Part shown: in pieces, positions 9,940 through 63,728 of the stretch
Layout: each line of letters starts with the position of its first letter
Position numbering within the stretch: position 1 is the stretch's first letter
NCBI GenBank assembly: GCA_018303825.1
Contig: JAGVXK010000018.1
Coordinates: 5,840-69,839 of the forward strand
Source of the DNA: Candidatus Pacearchaeota archaeon
GTDB taxonomy: Archaea > Nanobdellota > Nanobdellia > Pacearchaeales > GW2011-AR1
Reading direction: 5' to 3'
DNA length: 64,000 bases
The notes under the pieces: generated by a model
The model's database searches: none
Seen by the model: only the letters and a program-made list of their open reading frames with translations
What the model was told of the DNA's origin: nothing
Position numbers and translations under genes: made by a program

Positions 9940-10053
9940 TAATATCCAATAATCAGAAGATTATTACCCAATATTCAATTAGCGCTAAAAATAATTCATG
10001 ACATTATCGGTTTTAAGATATTAATTGATATGGTTTAGGGATGAAGTTGGAGA

Positions 10054-13488: not shown

Positions 13489-13492
13489 ATAA

Positions 13493-16053: not shown

Positions 16054-16054
16054 A

Positions 16055-17289: not shown

Positions 17290-17290
17290 C

Positions 17291-17443: not shown

Positions 17444-17470
17444 AAATAAAAAGGAAGAATAATTAACAAA

Positions 17471-18616
17471 ATGATAAAGATGAGCAAAATGAATAGAAAA
17501 GGGGAATTGACAACAGGACAGATAATAAGTATCATACTTATCATCATAGGTTTTCTTGCTCTGCTTTGGTTTGTGGTTTATCAGCTTGGATTCTCTGGGA
17601 GGATAGACAAGGATACCTGTCATACAAGTGTTGTTTTAAGGGGCACTTTGCCGTCATTGGGCGGGGCAGAGCAATATGCTCCATTGAAATGCAAGGCTGA
17701 AAAAATATGCATCACAGCAGGATTTATCGGGGGAAATTGTGAGAGTGATTATGGGAATGAGAAAGGAATTACAAAAGTCAAAGTTAATGATATTGAACAA
17801 ATCCAGCAATTCATTGCGCAGGATATTGTTGAATGCTGGAATATAATGGGGCAGGGAAAGGTTAATTTATTCTCACAATGGATTGCTGGCACATATGGGA
17901 TAGGGAGTGTTTATCCTACTTGTGTTGTCTGTTCTAGAATTGCCTTTGATAGGGAGAAATTGAGCAATATTGGAATTAATTTAGGAGATATGGATTTGAA
18001 TAAGTATATGAGCACGCATTTAATTCCCGGGAAGACTATTACTTACACAGACTTTTTTGCTGGAGAAAATTCAAAGGTAAAAATTAGCGATACAATAACT
18101 TTGCCAAAAGGAACAACTATAAATGGAAAAACGAGTTTAATTGCTAGTGATGAAAATGTTCCGGTGCAAGAGCTTACACAAGAGGAAATAGATGCTCAAA
18201 TTGCAGAAGAGAGAAAAAATGCAGATTTGCAGTCAAGAGCATTTGCTATTTTATTTATGCAGATTAGCGCACCAACTCAATTTGGAAGCGCGGCTAACAT
18301 TGGAAAGACATTATTTGTTGGAGGAGTAAGTTCATTTGTATTGGCTCCTGGAGTCACCACTTCAGCTGTTAAAAGCGGAGCGAAGTTGTGCACTTCAGGA
18401 GGATGGGTTGGTCCTGCGGTATGCGGCGGATTATTGGCTTTAGTAGGAATTGCACAGCAGACAAATGTTGCGATAAACAGACAAGTGACTGCAGGGTATT
18501 GCGGGGATGTTTCGGTTGGAACAGATGCCAGAAATGGATGCTCTGCTGTAAGAACAGTTCATTACGATGTAAGTGAAATAAGCAATTATTGTTCTATAAT
18601 AGAAGGTATTCCTTAA
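17471..18616 (+). CDS. Large Cys-rich pilin-like protein (381 aa)
   Basis: MNRKGELTTGQIISIILIIIGFLALLWF. About a dozen Cys in the extracellular part. Confidence 0.6.
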   Translation: MIKMSKMNRKGELTTGQIISIILIIIGFLALLWFVVYQLGFSGRIDKDTCHTSVVLRGTLPSLGGAEQYAPLKCKAEKICITAGFIGGNCESDYGNEKGITKVKVNDIEQIQQFIAQDIVECWNIMGQGKVNLFSQWIAGTYGIGSVYPTCVVCSRIAFDREKLSNIGINLGDMDLNKYMSTHLIPGKTITYTDFFAGENSKVKISDTITLPKGTTINGKTSLIASDENVPVQELTQEEIDAQIAEERKNADLQSRAFAILFMQISAPTQFGSAANIGKTLFVGGVSSFVLAPGVTTSAVKSGAKLCTSGGWVGPAVCGGLLALVGIAQQTNVAINRQVTAGYCGDVSVGTDARNGCSAVRTVHYDVSEISNYCSIIEGIP

Positions 18617-18741
18617 TTAATTAAATGTATTTCTGTTAAGAAGTATGGTTAATTTTATTATTGCTATTTTATGATTTTTCATCTATTGAGTTAATAATTA
18701 AAAATAAGTAAATTTATAACCTGAAAGTGATTGGATAGGAA

Positions 18742-19164
18742 ATGAACAAAAGAGGAGAGATGATTGGTCTGGAAACTTTGCTGTTTTTCCTGCTTAATCT
18801 CGCATTTATGGTGGTTTTAATGATATTTATTTTGAATTCCAGCTATGGTGCATTGGTTTACGAGCAGACTTATGCAAAACAAATCGTGCTGTTAATAGAT
18901 GGGGCAAAAACAAATACAGATTTAGGAATTGATATGACTAATGCTATTGAAGTTGCTAGGAAATATATTTCCACAAATAAAGCAGAGACGAGCGATGAAA
19001 TATTGAAAAGAGCAATTATAATTGATAAGGAAAAAGGCACGATAACTGTCAGCTTGAGTGGCCGAGGAGGTTATAGCTATAAGTATTTTTCAGGATATGA
19101 TGTGAATCTTGAAACTGCAGGAGTTATATTGAAAATAAATGTGAGAGAAAAGGAAAATGCTTAG
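18742..19164 (+). CDS. Pilin-like protein
   Basis: MNKRGEMIGLETLLFFLLNLAFMVVLMIF. TATA-like AAATTTATAACC about 28 nt upstream. Confidence 0.6.
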   Translation: MNKRGEMIGLETLLFFLLNLAFMVVLMIFILNSSYGALVYEQTYAKQIVLLIDGAKTNTDLGIDMTNAIEVARKYISTNKAETSDEILKRAIIIDKEKGTITVSLSGRGGYSYKYFSGYDVNLETAGVILKINVREKENA

Positions 19165-19693
19165 TGTGAATAAAATGAACAAGAGGGGGGGAGAGAAGCT
19201 TCTTGCTATTTGGTGGTTTTTTGTCTTAATTGTCATTGGGGTGGGAATTGTTGCCGGAGTTCTGATATTTTATAATGCTAATGTTGATGCGAGGACCTTA
19301 GAAGCACAGGTTCTTTCAGAAAGGATATTCTCTTGTATTGTGAAAGATAACTTTTTTGATAAGGAAGTTATGAATAATTTTGATGCGATATACAAAAAAT
19401 GCGGATTAAATGATAAATTATTTACTGGAGACGGAGTTTTTTATTTTAAGATTAGTTTGTACGATGGAGATAATTTATTTTACGAAAAAAGCAGCGATTT
19501 GAAATCTTTTGAGACTGATTGTGCGATTGCTTCGGAGATGAAAAAGGCAGACTATTTTCCTCGATGTGTAAAAAGCAGCGAGAATGTTTTGTTTTATGAT
19601 AATAATGAATTGAAATCACTCAGACTTGAAGTTCTCGCTGGAAGCAATCAATTTGGAAGGAGGGTAAGTTTAGCAGAAAATGACAAAAATTAA
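19157..19693 (+). CDS. Pilin-like protein
   Basis: MNKRGGEKLLAIWWFFVLIVIGVGIVAGVLIF. Alternative start at 19175. Confidence 0.6.
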   Translation: MLSVNKMNKRGGEKLLAIWWFFVLIVIGVGIVAGVLIFYNANVDARTLEAQVLSERIFSCIVKDNFFDKEVMNNFDAIYKKCGLNDKLFTGDGVFYFKISLYDGDNLFYEKSSDLKSFETDCAIASEMKKADYFPRCVKSSENVLFYDNNELKSLRLEVLAGSNQFGRRVSLAENDKN

Positions 19694-20282
19694 AAACAAT
19701 AGCAAAACTAACAAAAGAGGGCAGATAGCAAGCACAATGACATGGATGACTGCGTTCATAATAATCTTTTTCATAATGATTTTATTTATTACATCAGTTA
19801 TTATTTTTTCCGGAACGAAAAAAATTCCAGTTGTGGGAAGTGGCGGAAATCAAATTGAAGTTGAGAAATATGCTGCGGGTGGTTATGCTTTGCAAAGACA
19901 GCTCAACAATTTTATAGTATCTGGGATCTCTTATAATAATGCCAAATCGGCCGTGTTAGACTTCCTTTTGAATATGAAAAGCCTGGAGGGAGAAGAAGCT
20001 AAGGTTTTGAAAGACTTCACTCTTTCCTATTTCAATACCATATCTTCCCAATGCCATGTGGTTTGTGTTAGTTATTATAAAAATAATGAATTAGACAATG
20101 CATTGTTTATGAATACTAAAAAATGCCCGGGCAATGATAAAAATTCTTTGGGAACATCTGTTGTTTCAAAATACGAATGCAAATATTTAGAAGATACATA
20201 CAGCAAGGAGAACATACTTTATACAAGTTTCACAAAAGATAATCTTAAAGTGAGTTTGTTTGAGGGGGCAGCAAATGGCTAA
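19680..20282 (+). CDS. Pilin-like protein
   Basis: TNKRGQIASTMTWMTAFIIIFFIMILF. Confidence 0.55.
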   Translation: MTKIKNNSKTNKRGQIASTMTWMTAFIIIFFIMILFITSVIIFSGTKKIPVVGSGGNQIEVEKYAAGGYALQRQLNNFIVSGISYNNAKSAVLDFLLNMKSLEGEEAKVLKDFTLSYFNTISSQCHVVCVSYYKNNELDNALFMNTKKCPGNDKNSLGTSVVSKYECKYLEDTYSKENILYTSFTKDNLKVSLFEGAANG

Positions 20283-21018
20283 ATTTGGCAGTTTTAATAG
20301 AATTGGGATGAACAAGAAGGGAGATGTTTCTGTGACTCTTCTCATCTTTATGGCTTTGTTTTTGGTTATAACCGCCTTGTATAGTTTTATGGTTTACAGC
20401 AGAATTAATACAAGCATTGCTGACCCAAGATTTTTGGAAAAAAGCTACCAAAAGGAAGAAATGTATAAAATTGAGATATTCACAAAAGGATATGAAAATA
20501 TAGTAAAAGATTATTATGATAAAACTCAAGATTATCTGTCCGGAAATGAATTAGAAGTGTCTGGCTTTCAAATCAAGGATGAAAATGGAAATGTTAAAAA
20601 CATAGATGCTAACAAGGACAAAGAAATGGTTAGTTTCATATCTAAGGAAGACTTTCCTATTTTTGACGAGATAACAATCAAAGACAAGCAATCAAGATGG
20701 TATTGGAGGATTGTTCCTGAATCTGTCAAAGATCAGCAGATAAAGGTTTTGATTAATTCTATTTACAAGCCGAAAATAGATGTCAAAATAAATCTTACTG
20801 AAATGGGGTTGCATGACTTTGATGAGATTGATTCTGCAGTTAATCAATGTAAGGATTCTGATAATGATAAAATAAGATATTGTTTATCTGAAAGATTGGG
20901 CAATTTCGATGTTTCAATAGATGTAAAAGATAATGTTAAAACTGCTTTATTCAATACAAAGAAGAAGTTTTACATAGACAACCAGTTAAGAAAGATAGAG
21001 ATTAGCGTAAAGTTATAG
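20275..21018 (+). CDS. Pilin-like protein
   Basis: MAKFGSFNRIGMNKKGDVSVTLLIFMALFLVITALYSF. ATG at 20275 preferred over the TTG at 20260. Confidence 0.55.
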   Translation: MAKFGSFNRIGMNKKGDVSVTLLIFMALFLVITALYSFMVYSRINTSIADPRFLEKSYQKEEMYKIEIFTKGYENIVKDYYDKTQDYLSGNELEVSGFQIKDENGNVKNIDANKDKEMVSFISKEDFPIFDEITIKDKQSRWYWRIVPESVKDQQIKVLINSIYKPKIDVKINLTEMGLHDFDEIDSAVNQCKDSDNDKIRYCLSERLGNFDVSIDVKDNVKTALFNTKKKFYIDNQLRKIEISVKL

Positions 21019-21030
21019 GCTTAGCACTGG

Positions 21031-21183
21031 TGGCAAAAAGGTTTGTAAGCGTTTTTGGAAAGACCTCGAGGAAGTTAAGGTTTTTGCTTTCGCAAAAAGG
21101 TTTATAATAAGATTTAGAAAATCTTAAGAAAGTCAAGGTTGCTAACGCAAAAGGTTTATAAATAAGTATTTGCTTTAAGAAAC
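21031..21183 (+). repeat. Three tandem 55-59 bp imperfect repeats, each carrying a GCAAAA(A)GGTTT(G/A)TAA BRE/TATA-like box
   Basis: GCAAAAAGG at 21033 and 21092, GCAAAAGG at 21147. Units share ...AAG(A/T)(T/C)AAGGTT. Last copy sits about 26 nt from the ATG at 21184. Confidence 0.6.
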
Positions 21184-21759
21184 ATGCTTAATAAAAGAGG
21201 ACAGGAAGGCGGCGGAGGCACTAGCCTTGGAATGATTATAAGTATAGTCTTATTGGTATTGATTCTCATCTTCGCAGCTTATGCTCTTACTTCCAGCGGG
21301 AGAGAGTTTCTCGCAAAAGTTTTCAACTTTAAGGGCGGCACCACATTAGATTCCGTAGTTTCTGGATGTGCACTTTCTGCTGATTCGCAGGCAACAGACA
21401 GTTTCTGCTCTGAATTGAAGTATGTCAATCTTGATGGAAAGGATCAGTATGTTACATGCGATTATCTCCGTTCTATTAATAAGCTGGATAAGAGTCTTGT
21501 GTGCCTCGGATTAAGCAAGGACCTCGCCAATAACTGTCTTGCTTTAAAGAAGACAGGGATTATGGTCAATGGAATTACTATTGTTGGGTTGGAAGTTTGT
21601 GTAAAGGATCCTAAACTGGGAGGTTCTACTTGTGAGCAGTTTGGTGGTGCTCAGAAGCTTGCTACCGAATGCACTACTCTTAAAGGGACAGTAATCTATT
21701 CTATGCTCGGTGCAGATAATAAACCTACGGGTTCTGTTTGTTGCAAACTTGTAGTTTAA
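21184..21759 (+). CDS. Cys-rich pilin-like protein, candidate major subunit
   Basis: MLNKRGQEGGGGTSLGMIISIVLLVLILIFAAYAL. 10 Cys in the mature part. Own monocistronic unit behind the triple promoter-like repeat. Confidence 0.6.
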   Translation: MLNKRGQEGGGGTSLGMIISIVLLVLILIFAAYALTSSGREFLAKVFNFKGGTTLDSVVSGCALSADSQATDSFCSELKYVNLDGKDQYVTCDYLRSINKLDKSLVCLGLSKDLANNCLALKKTGIMVNGITIVGLEVCVKDPKLGGSTCEQFGGAQKLATECTTLKGTVIYSMLGADNKPTGSVCCKLVV

Positions 21760-21817
21760 TTTAGTTTTATTTTTTGTTATTCATTAATTATTTAAAGGTG
21801 TTTTTTCTTTTCTATTA

Positions 21818-21961
21818 ATGGATTACGGGTTTTCTGAAAGAAGGAAGAATAAGAATGATAAAAGGGCTAAGTCCAGGTTTAACAAATTTAAAAGAGGCGG
21901 ACGGTTCAGAACTAGTAATGTTAATAATATTAATTCAACTGAGAATAAGGGTGAGAAATGA
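21818..21961 (+). CDS. Small highly basic peptide (47 aa), ATGA-coupled to the prepilin peptidase
   Basis: Own translation: MDYGFSERRKNKNDKRAKSRFNKFKRGGRFRTSNVNNINSTENKGEK. Confidence 0.3.
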   Translation: MDYGFSERRKNKNDKRAKSRFNKFKRGGRFRTSNVNNINSTENKGEK

Positions 21962-22815
21962 ATGAGTATTATTTCTTGTTTGCATTAGTATTAGTTTATG
22001 CACTGTTTGCTGTTGTTCAGGATTTAAAGAAAAAAGAAGTGGCTAATTGGCTTAATTTGTCTTTGATTGCTTTTGCCCTTGCCTATAGGGCCCTTTACTC
22101 GCTTTACATAAAAGATATGAACTTTTTCGTTTTTGGATTAGTTGGATTGATTGTGTTTTACATAGTTGGTTCAATATTCTACTATTCTAAGGCATTTGGA
22201 GGGGGGGACGTAAAATTATTGGCTGGAGTAGGGGTTATACTGCCTTTCAAGAGCTATTCTGGCGTTCTCTTTGTTTTATTGGAGTTTCTAATAATCTTGT
22301 TTTTTATCGGAGCAGTTTATACTTTGATTTATAGCATTGTTCTTGCATTTAAGAACAGGAAGATATTCAAGAAAGAATTTTCTTTATTATTTAAAAGATA
22401 TTGGAGATTTCTTCTAATTATAGCTACTTTTGCCATTCTTTTAGGGTTTTTCATAGGGGTTTTTAACTCGGGGGGGTTGGGAGTGGGAGTTGCGGTATTT
22501 TTTGTTCTTATTTCTATTTTATATGTTTATTTGAAGGCCTTAGATAAAGGAATGATAATTAAAATAAAACCAGACAAATTAACAGAAGGCGACTGGATAT
22601 TGCAGGATATAAAATTGAATGGATATATTGTTAAAAATACAGTTCATGGACTTACATTAAAAGATATTCAAATGTTGAGGAAGGCTAAAAAGGAGGTTTA
22701 TGTCAAGACAGGAATTCCTTTTGTTCCTGCCGTGTTTTTTGCTTTGTTAGTTATGGTATTCTTCTCTCTAGTTTTAAAGTCAGACCTTCTGATTTTGCTT
22801 TTTTCCCGATTTTAA
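21958..22815 (+). CDS. A24-family prepilin/preflagellin peptidase (PibD/FlaK-like)
   Basis: Polytopic. Two Asp motifs: AVVQDLKKKEV and FGGGDVKLLAGVG (GxGDxK). Confidence 0.75.
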   Translation: MNEYYFLFALVLVYALFAVVQDLKKKEVANWLNLSLIAFALAYRALYSLYIKDMNFFVFGLVGLIVFYIVGSIFYYSKAFGGGDVKLLAGVGVILPFKSYSGVLFVLLEFLIILFFIGAVYTLIYSIVLAFKNRKIFKKEFSLLFKRYWRFLLIIATFAILLGFFIGVFNSGGLGVGVAVFFVLISILYVYLKALDKGMIIKIKPDKLTEGDWILQDIKLNGYIVKNTVHGLTLKDIQMLRKAKKEVYVKTGIPFVPAVFFALLVMVFFSLVLKSDLLILLFSRF

Positions 22816-46685: not shown

Positions 46686-46776
46686 AGCCTCCAGAGGGGA
46701 TTGAACCCTCGACCCTCAGTTCGTTTGGTCTTTGCGGACGTACAAAACTGATGCTCTACCACTGAGCTATGGAGGC
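46686..46776 (-). tRNA. tRNA-Thr (anticodon TGT) with a 19-nt intron after position 37
   Basis: Acceptor GCCTCCA/TGGAGGC, D-arm GCTCAGTGGTAGAGC, anticodon stem TCAGT/ACTGA enclosing TTTGTA[CGTCCGCAAAGACCAAACG]A, T-arm GAGGG-TTCAATC-CCCTC. Confidence 0.8.
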
Positions 46777-46859
46777 ATAATAGAACCTTAGTTCTATTAT
46801 TTCTATAAAAGGCAAACGGTTAAAAAGCTTTTGTTTCTCTTAATTTTGCAGTTTATCAT

Positions 46860-46930
46860 GGCCTTATGGTTCAGTGGCAAAACACCTCTTTGACGTGGAG
46901 GGGTCCGCGGTTCGATTCCGCGTAAGGCCA
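46860..46930 (+). tRNA. tRNA-Val (anticodon GAC)
   Basis: Acceptor GGCCTTA/TAAGGCC, anticodon arm CCTCT-TTGACGT-GGAGG, T-arm CGCGG-TTCGATT-CCGCG. Confidence 0.85.
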
Positions 46931-47035
46931 TTTATTCTCTTTTTTCCTTTTTTGTTTTGTTATCATTCTAAAGTATATAATAAGATTTATATAATTGTAA
47001 TATATAGTTTGCATTGTATATATCAGAGGATAATT

Positions 47036-47506
47036 ATGAGACTAATAGTTTTAATTCTTTTCTTGTCTTTGATTTTTATAGGCTCACTTGTTATTGTTAA
47101 TGCAAATGATATTCTTACAGTGGAAGCGAATATTTTTGGTTTAGAACCTCCAAGAATAAGCGTAAATGTGCCCGATTATATTTTTGTAGGAAATGCTTCG
47201 AAAGAAACTGAAACAGATAAAGTAAGAGTCGATATTAATAATACTGGCAATGTGGCGATTGTAATCAGTCCGGAATTAGTCAATGAAAGTGATGAGATAT
47301 TTAGTAATTTATATTTTGCAAGAAGGGCTGCTGATAGCTATAAGAGGATTGGAAGCTGGAGCATGAATGTATCTGCCCCAACTGCTGGAGGAGTTGAGTC
47401 TGATTATATGTACATGAAATTAGATCTTAGGAATTTTGATGGGAATATAACTGAAGACAGGATTGGGAAAAGGGCAGATGTAAGATTCATTGCAACAGCA
47501 CAATAA
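47036..47506 (+). CDS. Secreted beta-rich protein, TasA/camelysin-like
   Basis: Signal MRLIVLILFLSLIFIGSLVIVNA, then NDILTVEANIFG. Ends GKRADVRFIATAQ*, like the F-x-A-T-Q C-terminus of TasA-family proteins (from memory). The track start at 46874 lies inside tRNA-Val. Confidence 0.5.
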   Translation: MRLIVLILFLSLIFIGSLVIVNANDILTVEANIFGLEPPRISVNVPDYIFVGNASKETETDKVRVDINNTGNVAIVISPELVNESDEIFSNLYFARRAADSYKRIGSWSMNVSAPTAGGVESDYMYMKLDLRNFDGNITEDRIGKRADVRFIATAQ

Positions 47507-47549
47507 ATAATATAAATTAGTAAATTGTGACTATTCAAAGGTTGATTCA

Positions 47550-48158
47550 ATGGGGGAAATTAAAAATATTAAATTGATATTTATTTCTTTATCAATTTTA
47601 TTCTTCTTTTTATTGCTTTTTGAATATGTTGATGCATTTGAAATGAGCGTTTCTCCCCCTTCAATTGACTTTAGCTTGGGAATTGCTCAAAGAGAGTGTA
47701 TGACAATTGATATTTCTCTTAGTAAGCCAGGATTTGTATATGTTGGTGATTATTGGAGCGAAGAAGATATAAAGGATTTAGACTTTTATGTTTTTAATGC
47801 AAGGGAAATGAATCTTCTGCCTAATTACACTGAAAGGATGTTCATCAGCAGCAATAGAAGTGTTAATTTTTGTATTCTAGGAGCAGAAAATGGAATTTAT
47901 CGCGGTGTTTTAACTGTTGAGCCAGAAAATAGAAATCTCAAAGTTGGAATCTGGCTGAATGTTAAGATTAGCACAGAGAAGGATAACAATATTAGTGAGC
48001 AGAATTTTAAGAGTATAACTGGCAGTATAGTTAGTGGTGATAATAAATTGGATTTTGGCATCATTATGCTTTTCGGGATGATAATTGTGAATCTTCTTCT
48101 GCTTATTCTTTTGTTTTTATTGTTTAGGCTGAAGAAAAGAAGAATAGAAGAAGTGTAA
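47550..48158 (+). CDS. Surface protein with N-terminal signal and C-terminal TM anchor plus basic tail
   Basis: Signal or TM IKLIFISLSILFFFLLLF. FEMSVSPPSIDFSL...GIYRGVLTVEP beta-sandwich-like. C-terminal IIMLFGMIIVNLLLLILLFLLFRLKKRR. Confidence 0.5.
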   Translation: MGEIKNIKLIFISLSILFFFLLLFEYVDAFEMSVSPPSIDFSLGIAQRECMTIDISLSKPGFVYVGDYWSEEDIKDLDFYVFNAREMNLLPNYTERMFISSNRSVNFCILGAENGIYRGVLTVEPENRNLKVGIWLNVKISTEKDNNISEQNFKSITGSIVSGDNKLDFGIIMLFGMIIVNLLLLILLFLLFRLKKRRIEEV

Positions 48159-48266
48159 AAGGTATAAAATAGCAAGATATAGTTTAGTTAGTTACTAAGT
48201 AATTAATTTAATAAGAAAGGTTTTTATACTAATTTATCCAGTATTTTCAGGACAAAAGAGGCCCAA

Positions 48267-48401
48267 ATGAAGAAATATCTGCTTTTAATTGAAGATGAAA
48301 GCCTATGGGAAAGATTTAAAGAAATAATTGACCGAGATATAAATAGTGAAATAATGAATTTAATCAAAATCAAGATAAAAAATGGCAAGGAGAGGAAATG
48401 A
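48267..48401 (+). CDS. Small protein (44 aa), ATGA-coupled to the 611-aa ORF; possibly RHH-like
   Basis: Own translation: MKKYLLLIEDESLWERFKEIIDRDINSEIMNLIKIKIKNGKERK. Confidence 0.35.
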   Translation: MKKYLLLIEDESLWERFKEIIDRDINSEIMNLIKIKIKNGKERK

Positions 48402-50233
48402 TAAATAATAAAAGAGCACAGCTGGCAATATTTGTTATTATTGCAATAGTATTGGTCGCCGGGATAGGAGCTTACTTTTTGATAAAAGGCAAGATTGGAC
48501 CTGGTGCAGTCAGTTCTGAGTTTTCAAGTGTTTATGAATATTATTCTTCATGCATTCAGGAAAAGACCTCTCAAGCTGTTGATATAGCGGGAAGCCAGGG
48601 CGGGAAAATAGATGTTGGCAATTACATTCTTGGAAGCGAGTATGCTCCATTTTCTTCCCATTTGAACTTTTTGGGTTTTCCAGTCCCCTATTGGTTTTAT
48701 GTTTCTGGAAATGGGGTTGTAAAAGAGAATGTCCCTTCTAAGGGCGATATACAGAATGAAATTGCTGATTACATAGAGAATAATATTGGAAATTGTGATT
48801 ACGAATCTTTTTATGCAAAAGGTATAACTATTAAATTTGGAAATCCTGTTGTAAAGGCAACTATTAATGATAACAGCGTTTCTGTTAGTGTGAGTGCAAA
48901 AGTTGTAGTTAGCAAAGGTGGTCAGACTTCCAGCAAAAACTCGTATAGTGTTAATGTGAACAGCAAATTTGGAAAGTTTTATGATATCGCCCAAAATATT
49001 TATAATAAAGAAAAGATTGATGCATTTTTGGAAAATTACACAGTTGATGTTTTAAGATTATATGCTCCTGTTGATGGTGTTGAAACAAGCTGTAGCCCTA
49101 AGGTCTGGAAAACATTGGATGTTGAAAATGATTTGAAAGATGGTTTAGAGGCAAACATTGCCGCGATTAAGTTCAGGAGTACAGGGGACAAGTATTTTGT
49201 TGCCGGAAATGTTGATGAGAATGTTAATTTGATTTATTCAAGGAATTGGCCGACCAAACTGCAGATTATCGGAAATAATGTTGATAATGCTTTGATGATT
49301 GCACAGCCTCTTGGAAGCGAGCAGGGATTGAATTTGATGGGATTCTGCTATATTCCATATCATTTTGTTTATGATTTAAGTTTCCCAGTAATGGTGCAGA
49401 TTTATGATGATAACGAAATCTTCCAGTTTCCAGTGGTTGTTATAATAGATAAGAATGTTCCCAGAACAGCAGAACTTGTTAATTATTCACAAGAACAAGA
49501 TTTTGATCTGTGTGTATTTAAAACGCAGGATGCCACAATTGGAATTTACAATGTTGATTTGAATAGAGTTAATGCAAATCTTACCTACAAGTGTTTGAAT
49601 CAGGAATGCAATCTTGGAGAAACAACCAATGGGGAGTTTACAGGGAAGGTTCCTGCTTGTGTAAATGGACTGGTGGTTGCAAGAGCAAATGGATATGCTG
49701 AGAAGAAACAAATATTCTCAACTAATTCTGAATCTAGCACACAATTAATTTTAGACAGGGAATATAATGTAGAAGTCAGTGTAGATGTTGGTTTAAAGGA
49801 ATTCAATCAAAATGCCATTATTGCTTTTGAAAATAACGATACAGGGCAGATAGTAAGTGCTATTCTTCCAGGTGTTAAAAATGTCAAATTGACAGAAGGC
49901 AATTATCTTATCAAGGTTTATGCTTACGGGAATTCAAGCATAGTTATTCCAGAAAGCAAGAAGACAGAATGCAGAGATATTCCTAAACCAGGTATATTTG
50001 GATTCTTTGGAGGCACTGAGGAGAAATGCTTTGATGTGACCATTCCAAGTACAAGAGTAGATTCTGCTCTGATTGGTGGTGGAAAAGTATATACATATTT
50101 CTTGACAAGTGATTTGGAAAAAGGAAAAATAAAATTAAAAGCAGATGAATTGCCGAAACCAACAACCATTGAACAACTACAATACAATTTTGAAAGTTTC
50201 GATTCATTAAATTTGGGGGTTGAATTTGAATAA
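48398..50233 (+). CDS. Large extracellular protein (611 aa) with class-III-like signal
   Basis: MINNKRAQLAIFVIIAIVLVAGIGAYFLI resembles the N(K/R)(K/R)G(E/Q) pilin signals at 16-21.7 kb. No family recognised for the rest. Confidence 0.6.
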   Translation: MINNKRAQLAIFVIIAIVLVAGIGAYFLIKGKIGPGAVSSEFSSVYEYYSSCIQEKTSQAVDIAGSQGGKIDVGNYILGSEYAPFSSHLNFLGFPVPYWFYVSGNGVVKENVPSKGDIQNEIADYIENNIGNCDYESFYAKGITIKFGNPVVKATINDNSVSVSVSAKVVVSKGGQTSSKNSYSVNVNSKFGKFYDIAQNIYNKEKIDAFLENYTVDVLRLYAPVDGVETSCSPKVWKTLDVENDLKDGLEANIAAIKFRSTGDKYFVAGNVDENVNLIYSRNWPTKLQIIGNNVDNALMIAQPLGSEQGLNLMGFCYIPYHFVYDLSFPVMVQIYDDNEIFQFPVVVIIDKNVPRTAELVNYSQEQDFDLCVFKTQDATIGIYNVDLNRVNANLTYKCLNQECNLGETTNGEFTGKVPACVNGLVVARANGYAEKKQIFSTNSESSTQLILDREYNVEVSVDVGLKEFNQNAIIAFENNDTGQIVSAILPGVKNVKLTEGNYLIKVYAYGNSSIVIPESKKTECRDIPKPGIFGFFGGTEEKCFDVTIPSTRVDSALIGGGKVYTYFLTSDLEKGKIKLKADELPKPTTIEQLQYNFESFDSLNLGVEFE

Positions 50234-53200
50234 TGGCCTTTAGAAAAGCCCAGGGAAAGCTAAGGTTCATTAGTGAAAGGACGATGGTCAATAAATTGTT
50301 GATGTTGATGTTAATTGTTATAATTGGATTGGTACTTGGAGCTAATTATGTGGGTGCGGATTATACTTCTTCATTCGCAGGATATGGCAGCAGCTATTCA
50401 AGCGCAAGTTATCAATACCAACCAAGCTTTCAGACTTACTATGGAAATGATGTGAATACTTATTGGCCCATATTAAATGATAAAGATGTCTGCAAAGCAA
50501 GGCAGGATATGCTTTTACAAGTATCACCTGCAGGATGCCAGCCAATGGTTGTGAGAAGCGATTTATTGGCTGATCAGAATGTGCCGGTATTTTGCCAGAT
50601 TGATGCACTGCAGGTTAATCCTTTGATTGACATAAAAGAAATCAAAAACATAAATTTCAGAGGAAATTATCCCAAAGAAGTTGCAGGAGTTGGATTTCAT
50701 CCAGCAAGGGCTGCATTGAATACAAGAGACAGGCTTCTAGGAAGTCCATTAATAAATAACATTGGATATGTGGTAGTTATCCTTAAACAAACTAAGAACG
50801 AGAGCTCATTGCCTAAATTCGTTAATCTGACTTTGACTGGAAAGTTAGAATATAATGCAGGAAATGCATATGGAATAGGCACAAATGAATTTTATCTTGA
50901 GCCTACAGATGATAATCAATGGGAAAATGCGAAGATCGCGAATAGTTTTTGGAATGGAAGATATTTCATAAGATTATATGATGTCGATGAAACTTCTGCT
51001 TTAGTCTCGATATATGATGGGGACAGGGAAATTTCTAAGACGAGAATAAAACTTGGAGAGACTTCAGCTCCAATGTATCTTCCTGGAAGTTACTGTTCTT
51101 TTGGTCTGACGACAACTTATACAGGGCTTGCACAGTCTGATAAAAAAGCCAGAATAGAGATAAGCGATGAAAAAGGAACAAATAATCTTGATGTTTATCA
51201 GGGAAGCGAGTTTTTGAATGGAAGATGCAGAGTGAGCGAGATATTAGTAGATTCACAGACAGGAAGCACGGGAAGTGTAAAGATTGCATGCGATAGTGAT
51301 TTGATAAAATTGGAAATGAGGCCAAATCTATATGTTGAGAATCTGCCGTATGGAAGAACAAGTTTCAATGACATAGGAGCGAATAAGCAGGAATGCAAAG
51401 TTGATTTCAACGATGAAAAGAGTTATAGAATAACAAGAGATGTGGTTAAGGAAGCCAGCGGTGATTCTTATAGTTCCTGGACTACTTTGGAGATTTACAG
51501 TAATGATAAAAAAGATTGGACAAGTAGTTTCAGCTTGGATGATGCAACTAAAGACAAGATAAGGAATGCACTTGCGAATGCATGTGATTTCAGAGATGAT
51601 AAATTCTTGACTTCTGATGGAAAAACAGTCAATGATGTTGCAGAGAAAGCGTTCAATGATGCAATTGATTCATATGAAGAAGTTGCGAAGGATTATACTT
51701 CTGAGAGACAGGCTGCTACAGAGGGAGTTGCCAGATATGGAGAACTGGCATTAAGAGCTGCTCTTGATTTGGTTCAAGAGGCAACTTCAAAGAATTACGC
51801 AAAGAAGGAAACAAAATCAAGGTTATTGAATTTGTTCATTAGTTTATATCCTGAGAGTGCAAAGTTATATCAGAGCCAGAGGGATGCACTATATCAATTA
51901 GATTCTAGTATCTCAACTAAATCTGTGAATGTCGATAATAAGTTCAGGACAATAAGACTTGTAAGCTTAAATAATCCTGAAAGCGCAAATGAAAAGGCGA
52001 AGGCTAAGTTTACTTATGGCGGCAGAATTCTTGAATTAGTTAAAGGAGAAGCTAAGCCATTAAAGACAAATGCAATGATTAATGTCACAAGCTTCGATGC
52101 TTTGCATGCAACTATAAGAACCAACTGCGTTACAAAGGATAATGGATATGAAATAAAGACTGAAAGCGGGAAGCCAGTCTATCAGTCTTCTATAACTCTC
52201 AGCCTTGGAGAAAGCGAGAATGTGTGCGGAGAGCCTCTTGTCTTCAAAGATACTGATTTGAAGAAAGTTGCTAAGATAAGAATCAGCCCTACTGCGTATG
52301 GCCCTGAAACAGAGACAAATATATCTGTCAAGATTGGAATTGAAAAGAGAGCAATACAATTGAGTCCTGAAAAGACAAAAGATATGATTCTTAATATAAA
52401 TAAGAGCATACAAAAATGGGAAAGCATTTCAAAGAGTTTAGTAAAGGTAGAAACAGGGTTGAAGGCAGCTTGTTTTGCAACTTCTGCTGTGCTGACTGTC
52501 AAGACTTTCCTTTATGGGATAGATGGAACTGCCACCGCAAGACAGAAAGTGATGACTGGAGATTATGGGTGGAACAAGAGATGCAACGATGCGATAACTA
52601 AGAAGTGGCTTGATGTAAATGCAAATGGTGGAGAATTTGAACAGGGAATAGACAAGAATGTTAATTATGGAAGCATAATACAATGCATAAATGATAATAC
52701 TGCATCAATTGAAAAGGATGTTCAAACTACGAAGAATGCTCTGGTAGATACAAATAAAGTTGTGAAGGTTGCTCAGGATAGCGCCACCACTAAGGGAATA
52801 TTAAATCAAGATTTGGCTACCAAGGCAATGATAGATAAAATAGGAGCAGACTGCAAGCAATTTATAGAATTGCTTCCTGCAGTTGTTAGAGATTCAAAGA
52901 CTACAATTTATCCAGTTACATTATCTCAATCTAGAGATATTTATGCGAATTGCCTGATGCTGAAACAGAATCCGAATGATCAGAATGCTCTTCTTTCTAT
53001 GAAATCATTTTCAGAAAATGCGAAAAATACAATGACAGATTATGAGAAATTTGCAAGGTCTCAGGCATCAAATGATATTCTCCCTATAAATACTGGAACT
53101 GGAACAGCATTGAAAGGGAAGTTCTACCCAATTGTAGGAAATACCATTGGAGAAATACCAGTAAGCGGGGCGAGCATACCAGCAGGAGCAACTCATGCAG

Positions 53201-56200
53201 TAAGATTAGATAATCCCGCAACTATAGAATATGATAATGGCATCTGGGGCAAAGTATCTATTGGAGCACCATTTATAGTTGTTGGAACAGAATTGAATGG
53301 GAAGTTGCGACCTCTCGATGTATTCAAGTATGAACCTAAGTTTGAAAATGGAAAAGTGACTTCTGCAGTTATTTCTCAGATACCAAGTGAGAGTTATCAG
53401 GGTTCTAGTGGTGCTAGTTTGTTTATGTCAAAAAATGGCTATACAGGATTTGAAGAATTCGGGCAAGGACTTTATGGAAATACTATAAGAGAACAGGACA
53501 GAGCAGTATTATATTTTATATCTGGGCCCGATAAGGATTTGCCAAGCCAGGTTCCATTTGATGTTAACAATGGATGGTATGTAAAGGTTCAGGCGAGTTC
53601 ATTTAGTCTTGGGAGCAATGCAGTAAAGAGTTATGATGCTTCTGGATTGCCTAAAGACTGGCAGATATGCAATGTTGGAAGCGATGGAATGATAGGAAGT
53701 AATGATGATTGCCAGGCATTTAATCAGGCTTCTCTTGGAGCTACTATTCTTGGATTAGATGCAAAAACTTCGCAGGATTTGGTGCAGAAGTCCCAAAAAG
53801 CAATTTTGGATGCTGCTTCTCAAAAGAATACAAATACAAAACAAGTGAGCATATTTGGGCAGCCAATGAGAGTTGATTTCCAGAATCCAATGGAGAATGT
53901 ACAATGCTCTAACTTTATGACTGCCGGAGATTGTAAATTATTATTCAATGTCTGCGACCCAGTTATATGTCCTGCGAGCAGATGCAATCTTGGAGGGGCT
54001 TATAGGGTAGCGAATGTTCAACAGACAGGAATTGTGGGCTCTGCATTATTGTGTTTGCCAAATGCAAGAGAAGGAATTCTTCTTCCTGTTTGCGTTTCGG
54101 GAATTAGAAATGGAATCGATGCTTATGTTTCTTTATTGAAACAACATAGAGATTGTTTACAGCAGAATTTAGACACTGGAGAATTAGTTGGAGTTTGCGA
54201 TGAAATACAATCTATTTATACTTGCGAGTTCTTCTGGAGACAGGTGGCTCCTATTGCTAGTATGTTATTGCCTAAATTGGTTGAAAATGTTTATTCTGGA
54301 GGACAGGGAACAGGTGTTAATGGGGGAGGAGAATATTTATTCGTTCCTCAAGCATGGGATAATGCAAAGAATAGCATGGACTACTTTACTAATTATTATG
54401 CGGAGAATACATTTAAAGCATTCCAAATAAGAAGTGTTGAAGAAGCAGGAACAGAAGTTTGCAGAGGATTTGTTTCTTTGAAAGCTCCAACATCTATAAA
54501 GACTTTATTAGAACCGGATAGTCCTCCTCAGTTTTATGCAAGATTTGATTCAACCACTTTCTCGACGGTAACTGTGCCTGCCACTGCACAGTATAAAGTA
54601 TTTTACTTTATCAATGCAGGAAATGATGCAGGAGTTTATTATTCAGTTTATTTGAAGAGTCCTCCTGAATCAGGATATTATTATTCAAATCCAACAATTC
54701 AGATAGCAAATGGATATATTTCTAAAGGACAAAGTTCGAGTCAGACTTTGGATAAGACTGCTCCTGAAGGATATAAAGAGCTATGTGTAAGAATAAATAA
54801 TGAAGAAGAATGCGGGTTCAAACAGGTTTCAACAGACTTCAGCGTAAATTATCTTAGAGACCAGTACGCAAAAGACCAGCTTACTAACACAAATATTCAA
54901 ACTCAGGCAGAATGTGTATCTGGAACATCTAGTCTTGCAGCTGTTGGGGCTAATTTGAACTTGCAGTCTGCCGCTCAGGAGGCGGCAATGCCTGATATTT
55001 CTCAGAGAGGGATAGTAAGAATATGTGCAACATTGAATCCTGGAGGTAGCACAGACCCTACAAGATATATTCCTGTTGGAATTTGCGGCGATGCTAATTT
55101 GAAGTGCTGGCTCGACAAGACAAGTGTAAACAATGCAATAACTGATGCTAATCTCGGAGTGAAGAATGCAACCTTACAAGAGTTAGAGCAAACGAATATT
55201 GATGCTCTTATTGCACAAGGAGAAATTCTAAATAATGAAGTGGCTGTTTCAAGCATAAAAGAAATAAATAACAGAAAAGATATTTTAAGGGCGAATTTAG
55301 ATTCTAATAAGAATATTATCAGCGATGCACAAGCCTTGGAATTGTCAATTAATGATTTGTATGGCAAGCTGGTATTGAATAATCATAAGGCATGGCTGTT
55401 GCTTATAAGGGCTGAGGTAAAAGCAATGGAAGCTGAATATTATATGAAGAATATAGCTACAAAGACATTACCTTTAAGCAGAGTCAGCAGCACAACAACC
55501 GCTGGAATAACACAAACACATAGCATAAGTTTTGCCCAGGATATAGATGCTGCAACAGGAATGGATGTCACAAGAATATTTATAGATAGAAACCCTGACA
55601 GTTATTATTATATCTATAATGATCCTGAAAGAGGAAATATATTATACACTAATAAAATAAGTGGACCAAATACTCAAGAAGATAATCAGGTTGGAACAGT
55701 AGACAGAAGCAATATAATACAAGTTTATGCGAGTTATGCAGGAGATACAGATTTAAGCGTAATAAATGGGCAGAGATTAACATTTGATAATTCTGGAATT
55801 CCGCAAGCATTAACAGTGAAAACAACTGCTCCTGCGGCGTCAGCAGCTGCAACAACTGCAAATGAATTAGTATTTACTTTCCAAGATGGCACAATTTCTT
55901 GGAACTTAGAATATAGATTTCACAATGGTAAATGGCAGGCTACAAATGGGGGTGTACTTACAACAATACCTAATCCTTTACCACAAAGTTATAGAGATGC
56001 GTTTACTGCTACCACTGTTGCAAGTATGGAAAAACTTTCTAAAGCAAGTTCGCTTCAGGAAGGATTGAAGATATTAATAGATAGAACATTGGCAAATAAT
56101 GAAGGAGGATGGTTTGCAAATACTGATTTACTTGCTGGCAAATTCGATTTGGATAGTAAGGGAGAGTTTACAAGTTCTTCTATTAGTGGGATTAATTCCA

Positions 56201-56388
56201 TTTATCGATATGGTTCGAATGGGTGGGAATATTATGCTTCAGGCACAAATCGTGTCTGGATTCCGGTAAAGGATTTAGTTATTTCTAAGGATAAGATGAA
56301 TCTTGTTTTTGACAGTGATAAGACTCTTGTTAATCAATTATCAAATCAAGATTTCTATGGTGGTGCGTTGATATTGTTTAGTTCTTAA
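50233..56388 (+). CDS. Giant surface protein (2051 aa), function unknown
   Basis: Uninterrupted 6.1-kb ORF in AT-rich DNA. N-terminal TM or signal MVNKLLMLMLIVIIGLVLGANYVGA. Cys-rich, hydrophobic core near 53900-54300. TAATG overlap with the upstream gene. Confidence 0.75.
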   Translation: MAFRKAQGKLRFISERTMVNKLLMLMLIVIIGLVLGANYVGADYTSSFAGYGSSYSSASYQYQPSFQTYYGNDVNTYWPILNDKDVCKARQDMLLQVSPAGCQPMVVRSDLLADQNVPVFCQIDALQVNPLIDIKEIKNINFRGNYPKEVAGVGFHPARAALNTRDRLLGSPLINNIGYVVVILKQTKNESSLPKFVNLTLTGKLEYNAGNAYGIGTNEFYLEPTDDNQWENAKIANSFWNGRYFIRLYDVDETSALVSIYDGDREISKTRIKLGETSAPMYLPGSYCSFGLTTTYTGLAQSDKKARIEISDEKGTNNLDVYQGSEFLNGRCRVSEILVDSQTGSTGSVKIACDSDLIKLEMRPNLYVENLPYGRTSFNDIGANKQECKVDFNDEKSYRITRDVVKEASGDSYSSWTTLEIYSNDKKDWTSSFSLDDATKDKIRNALANACDFRDDKFLTSDGKTVNDVAEKAFNDAIDSYEEVAKDYTSERQAATEGVARYGELALRAALDLVQEATSKNYAKKETKSRLLNLFISLYPESAKLYQSQRDALYQLDSSISTKSVNVDNKFRTIRLVSLNNPESANEKAKAKFTYGGRILELVKGEAKPLKTNAMINVTSFDALHATIRTNCVTKDNGYEIKTESGKPVYQSSITLSLGESENVCGEPLVFKDTDLKKVAKIRISPTAYGPETETNISVKIGIEKRAIQLSPEKTKDMILNINKSIQKWESISKSLVKVETGLKAACFATSAVLTVKTFLYGIDGTATARQKVMTGDYGWNKRCNDAITKKWLDVNANGGEFEQGIDKNVNYGSIIQCINDNTASIEKDVQTTKNALVDTNKVVKVAQDSATTKGILNQDLATKAMIDKIGADCKQFIELLPAVVRDSKTTIYPVTLSQSRDIYANCLMLKQNPNDQNALLSMKSFSENAKNTMTDYEKFARSQASNDILPINTGTGTALKGKFYPIVGNTIGEIPVSGASIPAGATHAVRLDNPATIEYDNGIWGKVSIGAPFIVVGTELNGKLRPLDVFKYEPKFENGKVTSAVISQIPSESYQGSSGASLFMSKNGYTGFEEFGQGLYGNTIREQDRAVLYFISGPDKDLPSQVPFDVNNGWYVKVQASSFSLGSNAVKSYDASGLPKDWQICNVGSDGMIGSNDDCQAFNQASLGATILGLDAKTSQDLVQKSQKAILDAASQKNTNTKQVSIFGQPMRVDFQNPMENVQCSNFMTAGDCKLLFNVCDPVICPASRCNLGGAYRVANVQQTGIVGSALLCLPNAREGILLPVCVSGIRNGIDAYVSLLKQHRDCLQQNLDTGELVGVCDEIQSIYTCEFFWRQVAPIASMLLPKLVENVYSGGQGTGVNGGGEYLFVPQAWDNAKNSMDYFTNYYAENTFKAFQIRSVEEAGTEVCRGFVSLKAPTSIKTLLEPDSPPQFYARFDSTTFSTVTVPATAQYKVFYFINAGNDAGVYYSVYLKSPPESGYYYSNPTIQIANGYISKGQSSSQTLDKTAPEGYKELCVRINNEEECGFKQVSTDFSVNYLRDQYAKDQLTNTNIQTQAECVSGTSSLAAVGANLNLQSAAQEAAMPDISQRGIVRICATLNPGGSTDPTRYIPVGICGDANLKCWLDKTSVNNAITDANLGVKNATLQELEQTNIDALIAQGEILNNEVAVSSIKEINNRKDILRANLDSNKNIISDAQALELSINDLYGKLVLNNHKAWLLLIRAEVKAMEAEYYMKNIATKTLPLSRVSSTTTAGITQTHSISFAQDIDAATGMDVTRIFIDRNPDSYYYIYNDPERGNILYTNKISGPNTQEDNQVGTVDRSNIIQVYASYAGDTDLSVINGQRLTFDNSGIPQALTVKTTAPAASAAATTANELVFTFQDGTISWNLEYRFHNGKWQATNGGVLTTIPNPLPQSYRDAFTATTVASMEKLSKASSLQEGLKILIDRTLANNEGGWFANTDLLAGKFDLDSKGEFTSSSISGINSIYRYGSNGWEYYASGTNRVWIPVKDLVISKDKMNLVFDSDKTLVNQLSNQDFYGGALILFSS

Positions 56389-56480
56389 TGATATTGTTGA
56401 ATATATTAAAAGTGTGAGATGCGGGGACTAAACCCTGCATTGGTTGGCATTTTAATGGGTTTGATTTTCTCTTGTGATAA

Positions 56481-60637: not shown

Positions 60638-61131
60638 AAACTAAAAACTTCATTAAAATAATACTTAAGATAAAAGAAAAGAATGAACTAGATTTATCAG
60701 CAGGAGAAGATTTAAGCATAGCCTTAATGAATCTTGTAAGCCTGGAAGAGCATTCTTTCTTTAGTTATGTCAAAACAAAAGATGAAAAGTTTCTTGAGAT
60801 ACTTGAAACATGCAGAGAATTAAGAAAAAGACTGCTTGCTAAATTAGTCAACAAAGATGAGAGCGAGACATGGTGCATGAGCAAGCACTTACTTGCTTCC
60901 AGCATGAGGATGTATGAAATCGGGAACAGACTCTTACATGAAAATAATATTGAAGAAGCTAAAAAATTATATACGGATGCAGCAGAACTATATGCTCTAT
61001 TTTGGAAACTTAATTTTGATAAAAATATGAGCAAGAAAGATACAATAAAGAGTTATGTGAGCTATAAAGATAAAGAAAAGAAGAGTGTTTTCTCTGGAAT
61101 TAAAAAACTGTTGGAGTGTTGTAAAGAATGA
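60634..61131 (+). CDS. Soluble helical protein ending in a CC pair
   Basis: ATGA overlap with the upstream gene. ...ALMNLVSLEEHSFFSY... Ends KKLLECCKE*. Confidence 0.5.
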   Translation: MKTKNFIKIILKIKEKNELDLSAGEDLSIALMNLVSLEEHSFFSYVKTKDEKFLEILETCRELRKRLLAKLVNKDESETWCMSKHLLASSMRMYEIGNRLLHENNIEEAKKLYTDAAELYALFWKLNFDKNMSKKDTIKSYVSYKDKEKKSVFSGIKKLLECCKE

Positions 61132-61583
61132 AAGAACATCACTATAATTATTTGTGGGCTGGAATTATATTAATATCTATACTCGGAACTTTCTTTCTAA
61201 TTAAGATGACTTATGCCAATCCTCTCAATCTGCCAAATTATGCATTTACTAAACAGGCTATAAAGGAAGCTTATTCGTATGCAAAATTAAATGAAAGTGA
61301 ACTTGACGGATTGCCTTGCAATTGCGGATGTATGATTGACGTAGCAGGTCATAGCGATGGATTACATTCAAGAGGATTGATAGATTGCTTTATGCAGGGA
61401 GATATAAACAATGGAGGCAAATGGGATAGTCATGCAAGTGAATGCGGATTATGTTATGAAGATGCGCTTTATGCAAAAAATCTGTATGAACAGGGAAAAG
61501 CCAAAGAAGATATTAAGCAAGCATTAGAAGCAAAATATGTGGCACAGACAATAAGCAACAACACAGTTTATGGGACAAAATAA
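61128..61583 (+). CDS. TM-anchored PCYCGC-motif-family-like protein
   Basis: LPCNCGCMIDVAGHSDGLHSRGLIDCF...HASECGLCYEDA resembles PCYCGC-motif (lipo)proteins (PF13798, from memory). Confidence 0.6.
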   Translation: MKEHHYNYLWAGIILISILGTFFLIKMTYANPLNLPNYAFTKQAIKEAYSYAKLNESELDGLPCNCGCMIDVAGHSDGLHSRGLIDCFMQGDINNGGKWDSHASECGLCYEDALYAKNLYEQGKAKEDIKQALEAKYVAQTISNNTVYGTK

Positions 61584-63158: not shown

Positions 63159-63728
63159 ATGGCTAAAGGCAATAATCAAGATAGTGTTGTTTCTGATGAA
63201 GAGAATGAAAGAATAGCAGAATTAATTAGATATTCTGAGAATCTTGGATGTTATTTTGAAAAAAATTCTTTAGATTACGACACTATTAATTTTCTTGCTG
63301 TTGGAAAGGTAATTGCCTGCTTAAATCAATATCGGGGAAGAAATGGTGCGGATATTAGGACTATGCTACGCACAGCGGTATATAGGGGATTTATTGATGT
63401 TCATAGAAGAAGAAGTAGGGAAGTGAGCCTTGATGAAGTTGATTCTGATGGAAGAAAAAAATTTGATTTTGACGAGGAATCTCGTTTAGATCAAAGAAGG
63501 GATTCATATCAGAGAGATTTTCTTTTAGAAAATGTGATAAGGGAAGCGATGTCAAAATTACCTCAAAGGCATAGAACTATCTTAGAATTAAGATTTTATC
63601 AGGGAATGACTTATTCTGAAATTGCCAGACTATTAGGTAGGAAGCAGTCAACTATAGGAACAAATATCTATTATGGTATAAAAAATCTTAAGAGGATATT
63701 AGCTGGTAAAATTGATTTTAGAAGTTAA
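63159..63728 (+). CDS. Bacterial-type sigma-70/ECF-like protein (regions 2 and 4)
   Basis: Region-4-like LPQRHRTILELRFYQGMTYSEIARLLGRKQSTIGTNIYYGIKNLKRIL. Region-2-like RTAVYRGFIDVHRRRSRE. Confidence 0.6.
   Translation: MAKGNNQDSVVSDEENERIAELIRYSENLGCYFEKNSLDYDTINFLAVGKVIACLNQYRGRNGADIRTMLRTAVYRGFIDVHRRRSREVSLDEVDSDGRKKFDFDEESRLDQRRDSYQRDFLLENVIREAMSKLPQRHRTILELRFYQGMTYSEIARLLGRKQSTIGTNIYYGIKNLKRILAGKIDFRS

Follow-up and report, generated by a model that had tools for sequence, protein, structure and literature searches.

A widespread, uncharacterised three-gene surface module with a tetramer-array promoter in Pacearchaeota and Woesearchaeota

The DNA analysed here is a stretch of 64,000 nucleotides (the window) from a Candidatus Pacearchaeota archaeon, corresponding to positions 5,840 to 69,839 of contig JAGVXK010000018.1 in the GenBank assembly GCA_018303825.1. 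On its plus strand, at 46.9-56.4 kb, a tRNA-Val(GAC) gene is followed by five co-directional open reading frames (ORFs), g1 to g5 (locus tags J4217_02965-02980). This region consists of two independent modules: a core at positions 48179-56388, which includes a tandem array of T-W-A-S tetramers, a promoter and the genes g3, g4 and g5, and an accessory cassette made of g1 and g2. The core is a real and widespread surface module, so far uncharacterised, of a major lineage of uncultured archaea. As an envelope module of Pacearchaeota and Woesearchaeota, it is lineage-specific, inherited vertically and present in single copy. For its function we favour, at a probability of about 0.45, a constitutive envelope complex, in which g4 would serve as the membrane anchor; g5 would be a giant that lacks an anchor, is rich in cysteine and varies at its outer end.

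To determine the distribution of the module, one genome per species of GTDB was scanned for relatives of g4. Such relatives were detected in 441 species-level genomes, all belonging to Pacearchaeota, Woesearchaeota or Nanoarchaeota. The presence of each gene was counted across 84 fetched loci. All 84 carry g4, and g5 follows in 82, the two exceptions being contigs that end at the g4 stop codon; every locus with enough sequence (82 of 82) thus holds both genes. The small gene g3 (57-83% identity) was found in 72 of the 84, always directly 5' of g4, and the module is single copy in every locus examined. The genes g1 and g2 are much less frequent, being present in 16 and 13 of the 84 loci, respectively. 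In about 50 of 60 related loci a plus-strand tRNA-Val(GAC) gene closely precedes the module, a tRNA-Leu(TAG) gene is often found downstream, and the flanks hold housekeeping genes for FtsY, SRP54, phosphoglycerate mutase, GINS, TFIIB, S8e, LSm and RNase Z. Conservation of gene order, which a preliminary description of this DNA, made from the sequence alone, had named as a check, is very strong for g3-g4-g5. At the same 29 loci, the identity to the window proteins was 69.3% for g3, 52.6% for FtsY, 48.8% for g4 and 42.6% for g5. This housekeeping-like conservation of the g4/g5 core would fit a fixed structural machine better than an adhesin that tracks its host.

The preliminary description also reported five co-directional genes after tRNA-Val, with an ATGA overlap between g3 and g4 and a TAATG overlap between g4 and g5, and all of these are present in the sequence. 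In related loci, an overlap or a gap of at most 10 nt was observed at the g3/g4 junction in 98% of 56 cases and at the g4/g5 junction in 94% of 67 cases, the commonest form being ATGA. Because they are kept across related loci, these start/stop overlaps are beyond chance, and their presence in nearly every genome suggests that translation of g3, g4 and g5 is coupled. The same description had placed all five genes in one operon. The five genes do not form one obligatory operon, because g3-g4-g5 have their own BRE (TFB-recognition element)/TATA-like box, and g1-g2 are optional; the region is thus better divided into two units.

No significant match was obtained for any of the five proteins in scans of Pfam, NCBIfam, PHROGs and PADLOC, and sequence-profile searches of PDB with alignments of all five families (two alignments for g1) yielded nothing significant. 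The searches with PHROGs, PADLOC and phage records gave no viral, defence or mobile-element signal at the module; in particular, tblastn of g4 and g5 against phage records detected no relatives. We found no description of these protein families in the literature. Castelle et al. (2021, PMC8204110) mention only that lineage-specific, mostly extracellular families of unknown function are common to both lineages.

The product of g4 is exported, with a pilin-type N-terminal signal and helix. Its N-terminus reads MINNKRAQLAIFVII. At least 1867 homologs were found, of about 610-650 amino acids and 50-60% identity over the full length, all of them unnamed proteins of Pacearchaeota, Woesearchaeota or Nanoarchaeota. 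In their alignment (A1), the N-terminus has a conserved xxKRGQ and then a hydrophobic helix; Q8 is conserved in at least 90% of the sequences, ten cysteines are invariant, and motifs such as NFLGFPVPYW and GFCYxPYHFVYD recur. A class III signal was defined as an N-terminal [KRDE][GA][ALIFQMVED] followed by a hydrophobic helix, and the g4 family carries such a signal. The FlaFind-type motif [KR][GA]Q plus helix is found in 109 of 120 homologs, mostly as RGQ, KGQ, KAQ or RAQ, while the remaining homologs are mostly mis-started or are GGQ/IGQ variants. The window also holds a type IV filament locus (11206..22815) with a T2SSE ATPase, eight pilin-like ORFs and a Peptidase_A24 gene (21958..22815, E 7e-14). 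Each of the eight pilin-like ORFs begins with N-K/R-K/R-G-E/Q/D and none matches Pfam; outside this pilin cluster (16-21.7 kb), g4 is the sole protein of the window with N-K/R-K/R-G/A-Q/E and a helix. The class-III-like signal that had been noted for g4 is thus supported by its conservation in the family, by its restriction within the window and by the presence of a prepilin peptidase.

The AlphaFold2 (AF2) model of g4, with a predicted local distance difference test (pLDDT) score of 75.5, consists of helices at residues 5-29 and 40-66, an alpha/beta region at about 100-355 and beta-sandwiches at 370-610. When this model was compared with PDB and BFVD by Foldseek, only generic multi-beta-sandwich surface proteins were returned, with template-modelling (TM) scores of 0.1-0.2, including the B. 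anthracis TIE protein, Gram-positive pilins, SlaB and phage tail proteins. No match to pilin families was detected in Pfam.

The product of g5 is exported by a Sec signal and has no other hydrophobic segment, the single one being N-terminal; ordinary Sec-type signal peptides are also found in its homologs. These number at least 648, are 1700-2765 amino acids long and, like those of g4, are unnamed proteins of Pacearchaeota, Woesearchaeota or Nanoarchaeota without any recurrent Pfam domain. The preliminary description could name no domain in this giant, and none was found with Pfam or NCBIfam either. A murein-transglycosylase giant, considered as a candidate, was rejected since g5 has no such domain. 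Of the 34 cysteines of g5, 29 are invariant in alignment A2, and the many invariant cysteines of both proteins point to disulfide-bonded ectodomains in g4 and g5. Conserved blocks were mapped at residues 51-350, 650-800 and 1100-1650, and the only variable region is the C-terminal 300 residues (1750-2051). The AF2 model of residues 640-1760 (pLDDT 65.6) shows long helices that alternate with beta-sandwiches, and this segment gave no match below E 0.1 with Foldseek against PDB. The window protein contains 6 N-glycosylation sequons (N-X-S/T) against 22 expected. As a separate observation, extra C-terminal domains occur in a few g5 homologs (P0110 and P0113), being trypsin-like (PF00089/PF13365) or DUF4347; these fit a modular and exposed C-terminus of g5.

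Upstream of the core lies a putative promoter. The array is composed of about nine tandem tetramers of the forms TTAG, TAAG, TTAC and TAAC, which stand in strict 4-nt register with the TATA box; the proximal tetramers tend to end in G and the distal ones in C, forming a pseudo-palindrome. It is the sole such site in the window, where 8 overlapping matches were counted and 0.10 would be expected. Across 1.27 Mb of related loci, 69 arrays were detected, all located 32-236 nt upstream of g3 and none elsewhere; the array is present in 69 of 71 loci with g3 and in none of 11 loci without g3. After alignment of the upstream regions, 63 of 70 align on AATAAGnAAGnTTTATATA with nearly invariant columns and with a median distance of 46 nt from TATA to ATG, and in the window a purine-rich AAAGAGG (48255..48261) is located between the TATA-like box and g3. 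By its agreement with archaeal promoter architecture, the BRE/TATA-like box is taken as the putative promoter of the module. The array sequence (48179..48228 region) contains stop codons in all six frames.

The single-copy gene g3, with the sequence pattern MKKYLLLIEDExLWExFK...DINSEI..., shows a divergence of 0.25, 0.13 and 0.54 at codon positions 1, 2 and 3, a coding pattern. Its product has a strand-helix-helix-like look and a basic tail, features reminiscent of ribbon-helix-helix (RHH) repressors that act on repeat arrays, such as CopG and omega of pSM19035. As with these repressors, a protein of about 45 amino acids is encoded next to a phased short-repeat array at its own promoter. The g3 system differs from them in that its putative strand consists entirely of hydrophobic residues, its repeats are 4 nt long as against 7-13 nt, and support by hidden Markov models (HMMs) or hhalign is absent: a Pfam scan of 26 family members gave no RHH family at E<=10, a PDB profile search gave no RHH chain and no match, and hhalign against CopG gave a probability of 1%, indicating no relationship. 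Some loci depart from the common arrangement. Most of those without g3 and array (L001, L006, L016, L018, L027, L044 and L045) have in common a highly conserved promoter/leader AAAAAAGGTTTATATATTCGGTTTTnTTGTTTAG upstream of g4, a pattern that suggests a single replacement of the regulatory region in one sub-clade. In one locus (L037, about 9820..9950) a truncated duplicate of the g3 start lies upstream of the intact g3, and in another (L053) about 190 nt of extra sequence separate g3 from g4.

The coordinates of the locus are listed in Table 1. For g1, a longer ORF with GTG start at 46874 runs into the tRNA-Val gene; because of this overlap the ATG at 47036 is the realistic start. For g5, the NCBI record of the identical protein begins at Met18 (50284), resulting in a protein of 2034 amino acids.

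Table 1. Positions of the genes and control elements of the locus within the window.
Feature	Position	Strand	Description
tRNA-Val(GAC)	46859..46931	+	Detected by ARAGORN and Rfam; conserved upstream boundary of the locus
g1	47036..47506	+	156 aa, secreted, beta-rich; first gene of the optional g1-g2 cassette
g2	47550..48158	+	202 aa; signal, beta-rich body, ITGxxV motif, C-terminal transmembrane helix, basic tail
T-W-A-S tetramer array	48179..48215	.	About 9 tandem units abutting the promoter; putative operator or upstream promoter element
BRE/TATA-like box AATAAGAAAGGTTTTTATA	48210..48228	+	46 nt 5' of the g3 ATG
g3	48267..48401	+	44 aa; most conserved gene of the module; putative small regulator
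g4	48398..50233	+	611 aa, extracellular; pilin-type N-terminus, alpha/beta domain, C-terminal beta-sandwiches; proposed membrane anchor/stalk
g5	50233..56388	+	2051-aa giant; Sec-secreted, anchorless, cysteine-rich

Based on these features, the envelope complex may be pictured as follows. The g4 protein would be trimmed by the A24 prepilin peptidase and stay in the membrane via its hydrophobic helix, its beta-sandwich domains forming a stalk, and through g4 the anchorless g5 would be kept at the cell surface. The structural body of g5 could then be its strongly conserved core, rich in cysteine, and its fast-changing last 300 residues the exposed contact surface. Such a complex would belong to the envelope constitutively, as a spike or as part of a lattice rather than as the filament of a pilus. 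Transcription would start from the dedicated promoter, and the tetramer array upstream of it would be bound by a protein, most simply by the small g3 with its basic tail.

Several points weigh against this picture. The motif of g4 could be merely the positively charged end of an uncleaved signal anchor, and an interaction between g4 and g5 is no more than suggested by their adjacency and overlapping junctions. The most conserved part of g5, the cysteine-rich residues 1243-1451, was modelled by AF2 at low confidence. Within the g5 family, N-glycosylation sequons are depleted 2-fold, falling below expectation in 120 of 120 homologs; this depletion and the richness in cysteine and helix are atypical for archaeal envelope or S-layer proteins. 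As to regulation, no similarity of g3 to a DNA-binding family could be detected, and the hydrophobicity of its N-terminal strand is unusual. A small number of deletions, each removing g3 together with the neighbouring array, could explain why the two occur together, since the loci without g3 mostly share one distinct promoter and independent loss events are therefore few.

The envelope-complex, S-layer, pilus-tip and released-factor readings overlap one another, and the evidence that bears on each was compared. A two-component S-layer, with an outer lattice of g5 on a membrane stalk of g4 by analogy with SlaA/SlaB of Sulfolobales, is in our estimate unlikely. In each of the two systems the genes for a large anchorless protein secreted by Sec and for a smaller membrane-anchored beta-sandwich protein stand side by side, and both systems appear constitutive and lineage-wide; the present module is single copy in every locus examined and occurs in 441 species-level genomes of the lineage. 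SlaB (8qox_B) is even among the Foldseek matches of g4 (E 7.7e-5), but this match has a TM score of about 0.12 and is shared with many beta-sandwich proteins, and g5 matches nothing; neither sequence nor a specific fold relates SlaA/SlaB to g4/g5. SlaB has its transmembrane segment at the C-terminus, g4 a pilin-type anchor helix at the N-terminus, and a mini-gene and promoter array of its own set the module apart. Heavy N-glycosylation is usual among archaeal S-layer proteins, and an identity of 40-50% across a broad clade is rarely seen in them. In contrast, g5 has 34 cysteines, a high helical content and few sequons in all 120 homologs, and an identity of 40-50% is kept here across a very broad clade. 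In another reading, for which we see rather little probability, g4 is a large minor pilin that is cleaved by the A24 peptidase and sits at the tip or base of the pilus encoded at 11-22.8 kb, where it presents g5 as a tip adhesin, a complex that would resemble that of bacterial minor pilins and PilY1. The N-terminus that g4 alone shares with the eight pilin-like genes outside their cluster, the family-wide conservation of its motif directly before the hydrophobic helix, the peptidase and ATPase in the same genome, and the anchorless g5 with its variable end all agree with this proposal. Within 10 kb of g4, however, no T2SSE ATPase, A24 peptidase or pilin homolog was detected in any of the 84 loci, so the cooperation with the type-IV-pilus machinery that the preliminary description had proposed finds no genomic link. 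In addition, g4 has no match to pilin families, its ectodomain of about 580 amino acids is far above pilin size, and the g4-g5 pair lies with its own putative regulator and promoter among housekeeping genes. Surface proteins that form no filament, among them the sugar-binding proteins of the Sulfolobus bindosome, also carry class III signals, a type of signal that g4 shares with them and with type IV pilins. The parallel with PilY1, a pilin-like protein that could present a very large non-pilin partner, is a functional analogy only, with no homology and no linkage to pilus genes.

A released or host-directed effector, with g5 freed or inserted into a host membrane as toxin, pore or nutrient scavenger and g4 as its export or activation partner rather than a lasting anchor, is likewise given low odds. 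Consistent with such a role, g5 has no anchor, its residues 1243-1451 form moderately hydrophobic, cysteine-flanked helices that AF2 cannot place, the avoidance of sequons would suit a protein that must refold or insert, and in one homolog (P0110) a trypsin-like domain is fused to the protein. In g5 itself, though, neither a catalytic domain nor a resemblance to any toxin, pore-former or enzyme was found; the Foldseek matches to ClyA and IpaD have a probability of at most 0.13 and E values above 0.5, and it is rare for effectors to be as conserved as FtsY or to keep a fixed position. A mobile element or provirus integrated at tRNA-Val might be suspected from genes that directly follow a tRNA and whose products are without annotation, but it retains next to no probability: the same order from tRNA-Val to the module in about 50 of 60 diverged genomes excludes it, and there is no integrase, no repeat, no match in PHROGs and no relative in phage records, while the GC content is like that of the rest of the window and the flanks hold housekeeping genes. 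Finally, and as a long shot, the trio may be a conserved host-contact machine, in which g4 is a fixed pilin-anchored stalk, the g5 core, helical, invariant and rich in cysteine, engages or penetrates the partner envelope and the variable C-terminus of g5 sets partner specificity, the whole being switched by the array and g3; as part of the same joint proposal, this switch would be a new type of operator, a phased T-W-A-S array read by a 44-residue protein.

The cassette of g1 and g2 is a separate and optional unit, autonomous of the core. When close to the core, it is always located between tRNA-Val and g4, with g2 after g1 in 13 loci. Distant homologs of g1, each followed by a g2-like gene, were found in two unrelated neighbourhoods (L085 and L086). 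The terminal features first described for both proteins are all present: a signal-like N-terminus and the C-terminal end DVRFIATAQ in g1, and a signal, a C-terminal hydrophobic helix and the tail LKKRRIEEV in g2. By exhaustive profile search, the g1 family comprises 505 representative clusters, nearly all of 150-180 amino acids. The sole large match is a 3213-residue protein of HYDIN/ASH/DUF1573/CARDB Ig-like repeats, which matches g1 positions 45-82; such a repeat motif is common to many beta-sandwich families, and this link is non-discriminating. Directly behind its signal, g1 has a conserved segment (D-T-x-T-V/F-E-A-N-I), and the N-X-S/T sequons of the family (P0241-P0295) are enriched about 3-fold, a bias opposite to that of the g5 family. 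In the g2 alignment (A4), P36, C50, W69 and C108 are invariant. In g2 and 13 homologs, a conserved I/L-T-G-x-x-V stands a few residues before the C-terminal transmembrane helix and basic tail, perhaps as a signal for sorting or processing. No relationship between g1 and g2 was detected by hhalign. We picture g1 as a small secreted, probably N-glycosylated beta-sandwich protein, with g2 as its membrane-anchored, beta-rich partner.

The preliminary description had likened g1 to TasA/camelysin-type fibre proteins and g2 to Gram-positive cell-surface-complex proteins, and neither comparison is upheld by family profiles. PF12389 (Peptidase_M73) and the SipW-cognate models of NCBIfam gave no match at E<=1 with g1 or 16 family members, PDB profile searches with two g1 alignments (A3 and A8) gave no TasA, AbpA or CalY chain at E<=10, and hhalign of g1 against a manually entered TasA query sequence gave a probability of 0.2%. 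For g2 and its 13 homologs, a Pfam scan gave no match, including DUF916, DUF3324 and WxL, and PDB gave none. A fibre like those of TasA and archaeal bundling-pilus (ABP) proteins, with g1 polymerising by donor-strand exchange and g2 as a membrane anchor like TapA or AbpB, is nevertheless a possible, if doubtful, reading of this cassette. The pair shares the layout described for tasA-tapA of Bacillus and abpA-abpB of Pyrobaculum, where the first gene encodes a small, glycosylated and beta-rich subunit secreted by Sec and the second a beta-sandwich anchor associated with the membrane, and AbpA itself is TasA-like only by very sensitive methods (PMC9245690). The conserved segment after the g1 signal and the sequon enrichment also agree with a fibre subunit. 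Set against these, besides the failed profile and hhalign comparisons, are the size of mature g1 (about 130 amino acids, smaller than TasA or AbpA) and the Ig-like ASH/DUF1573/CARDB repeats as the sole remote link. The g1-g2 locus also differs from the bacterial layout in that no signal peptidase gene (SipW) is present. In annotation, g1-g2 should not be lumped with the core, nor should g1 be called TasA-like on present evidence.

Around the locus, an Rfam scan of 45.5-57.5 kb detected two tRNAs only. Besides tRNA-Val, this is a 91-nt tRNA on the minus strand (46686..46776), reported as 'tRNA-???' by ARAGORN and scored 62 bits by Rfam, which probably contains an intron; its position is occupied in related loci by a tRNA-Tyr(GTA) of about 90 nt or a tRNA-Thr(TGT). 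Downstream of the g5 stop codon, a short GC-rich inverted repeat (TGCGGGG...CCCTGCA) followed by a T-rich stretch is located at 56420..56475, where the operon probably ends; the next gene, of ArsR-type helix-turn-helix (HTH), starts at 56516 and has its own AAGTAAGGTTTAAATA box. The scan for bacterial-type promoters and terminators was uninformative, the organism being an archaeon. Farther downstream, at 63159..63728 and 61128..61583 of the window, an ORF with a Sigma-70 region 4 HTH (E 3e-13) in this archaeal genome and a nearby PCYCGC-motif protein were observed.

Few uncultured archaea are as widespread as Pacearchaeota and Woesearchaeota, and to our knowledge neither their envelopes nor their mode of contact with partner cells is known. 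A trio that is present in hundreds of species, in a fixed position and with a conservation like that of the signal recognition particle (SRP) receptor, is a leading candidate for a structure at the core of the envelope or of cell contact in these organisms. The module, a pilin-anchored protein together with a secreted giant of 2,000 residues and unrecognised fold, offers specific targets for proteomics, for labelling in cryo-electron tomography and for structure determination. We know of no regulation studied so far in the lineage that carries it, and the tetramer-array promoter with its 44-residue gene is a compact candidate for a cis/trans regulatory pair. If the host-contact reading were true, the module would represent a previously undescribed class of archaeal cell-cell interaction apparatus.

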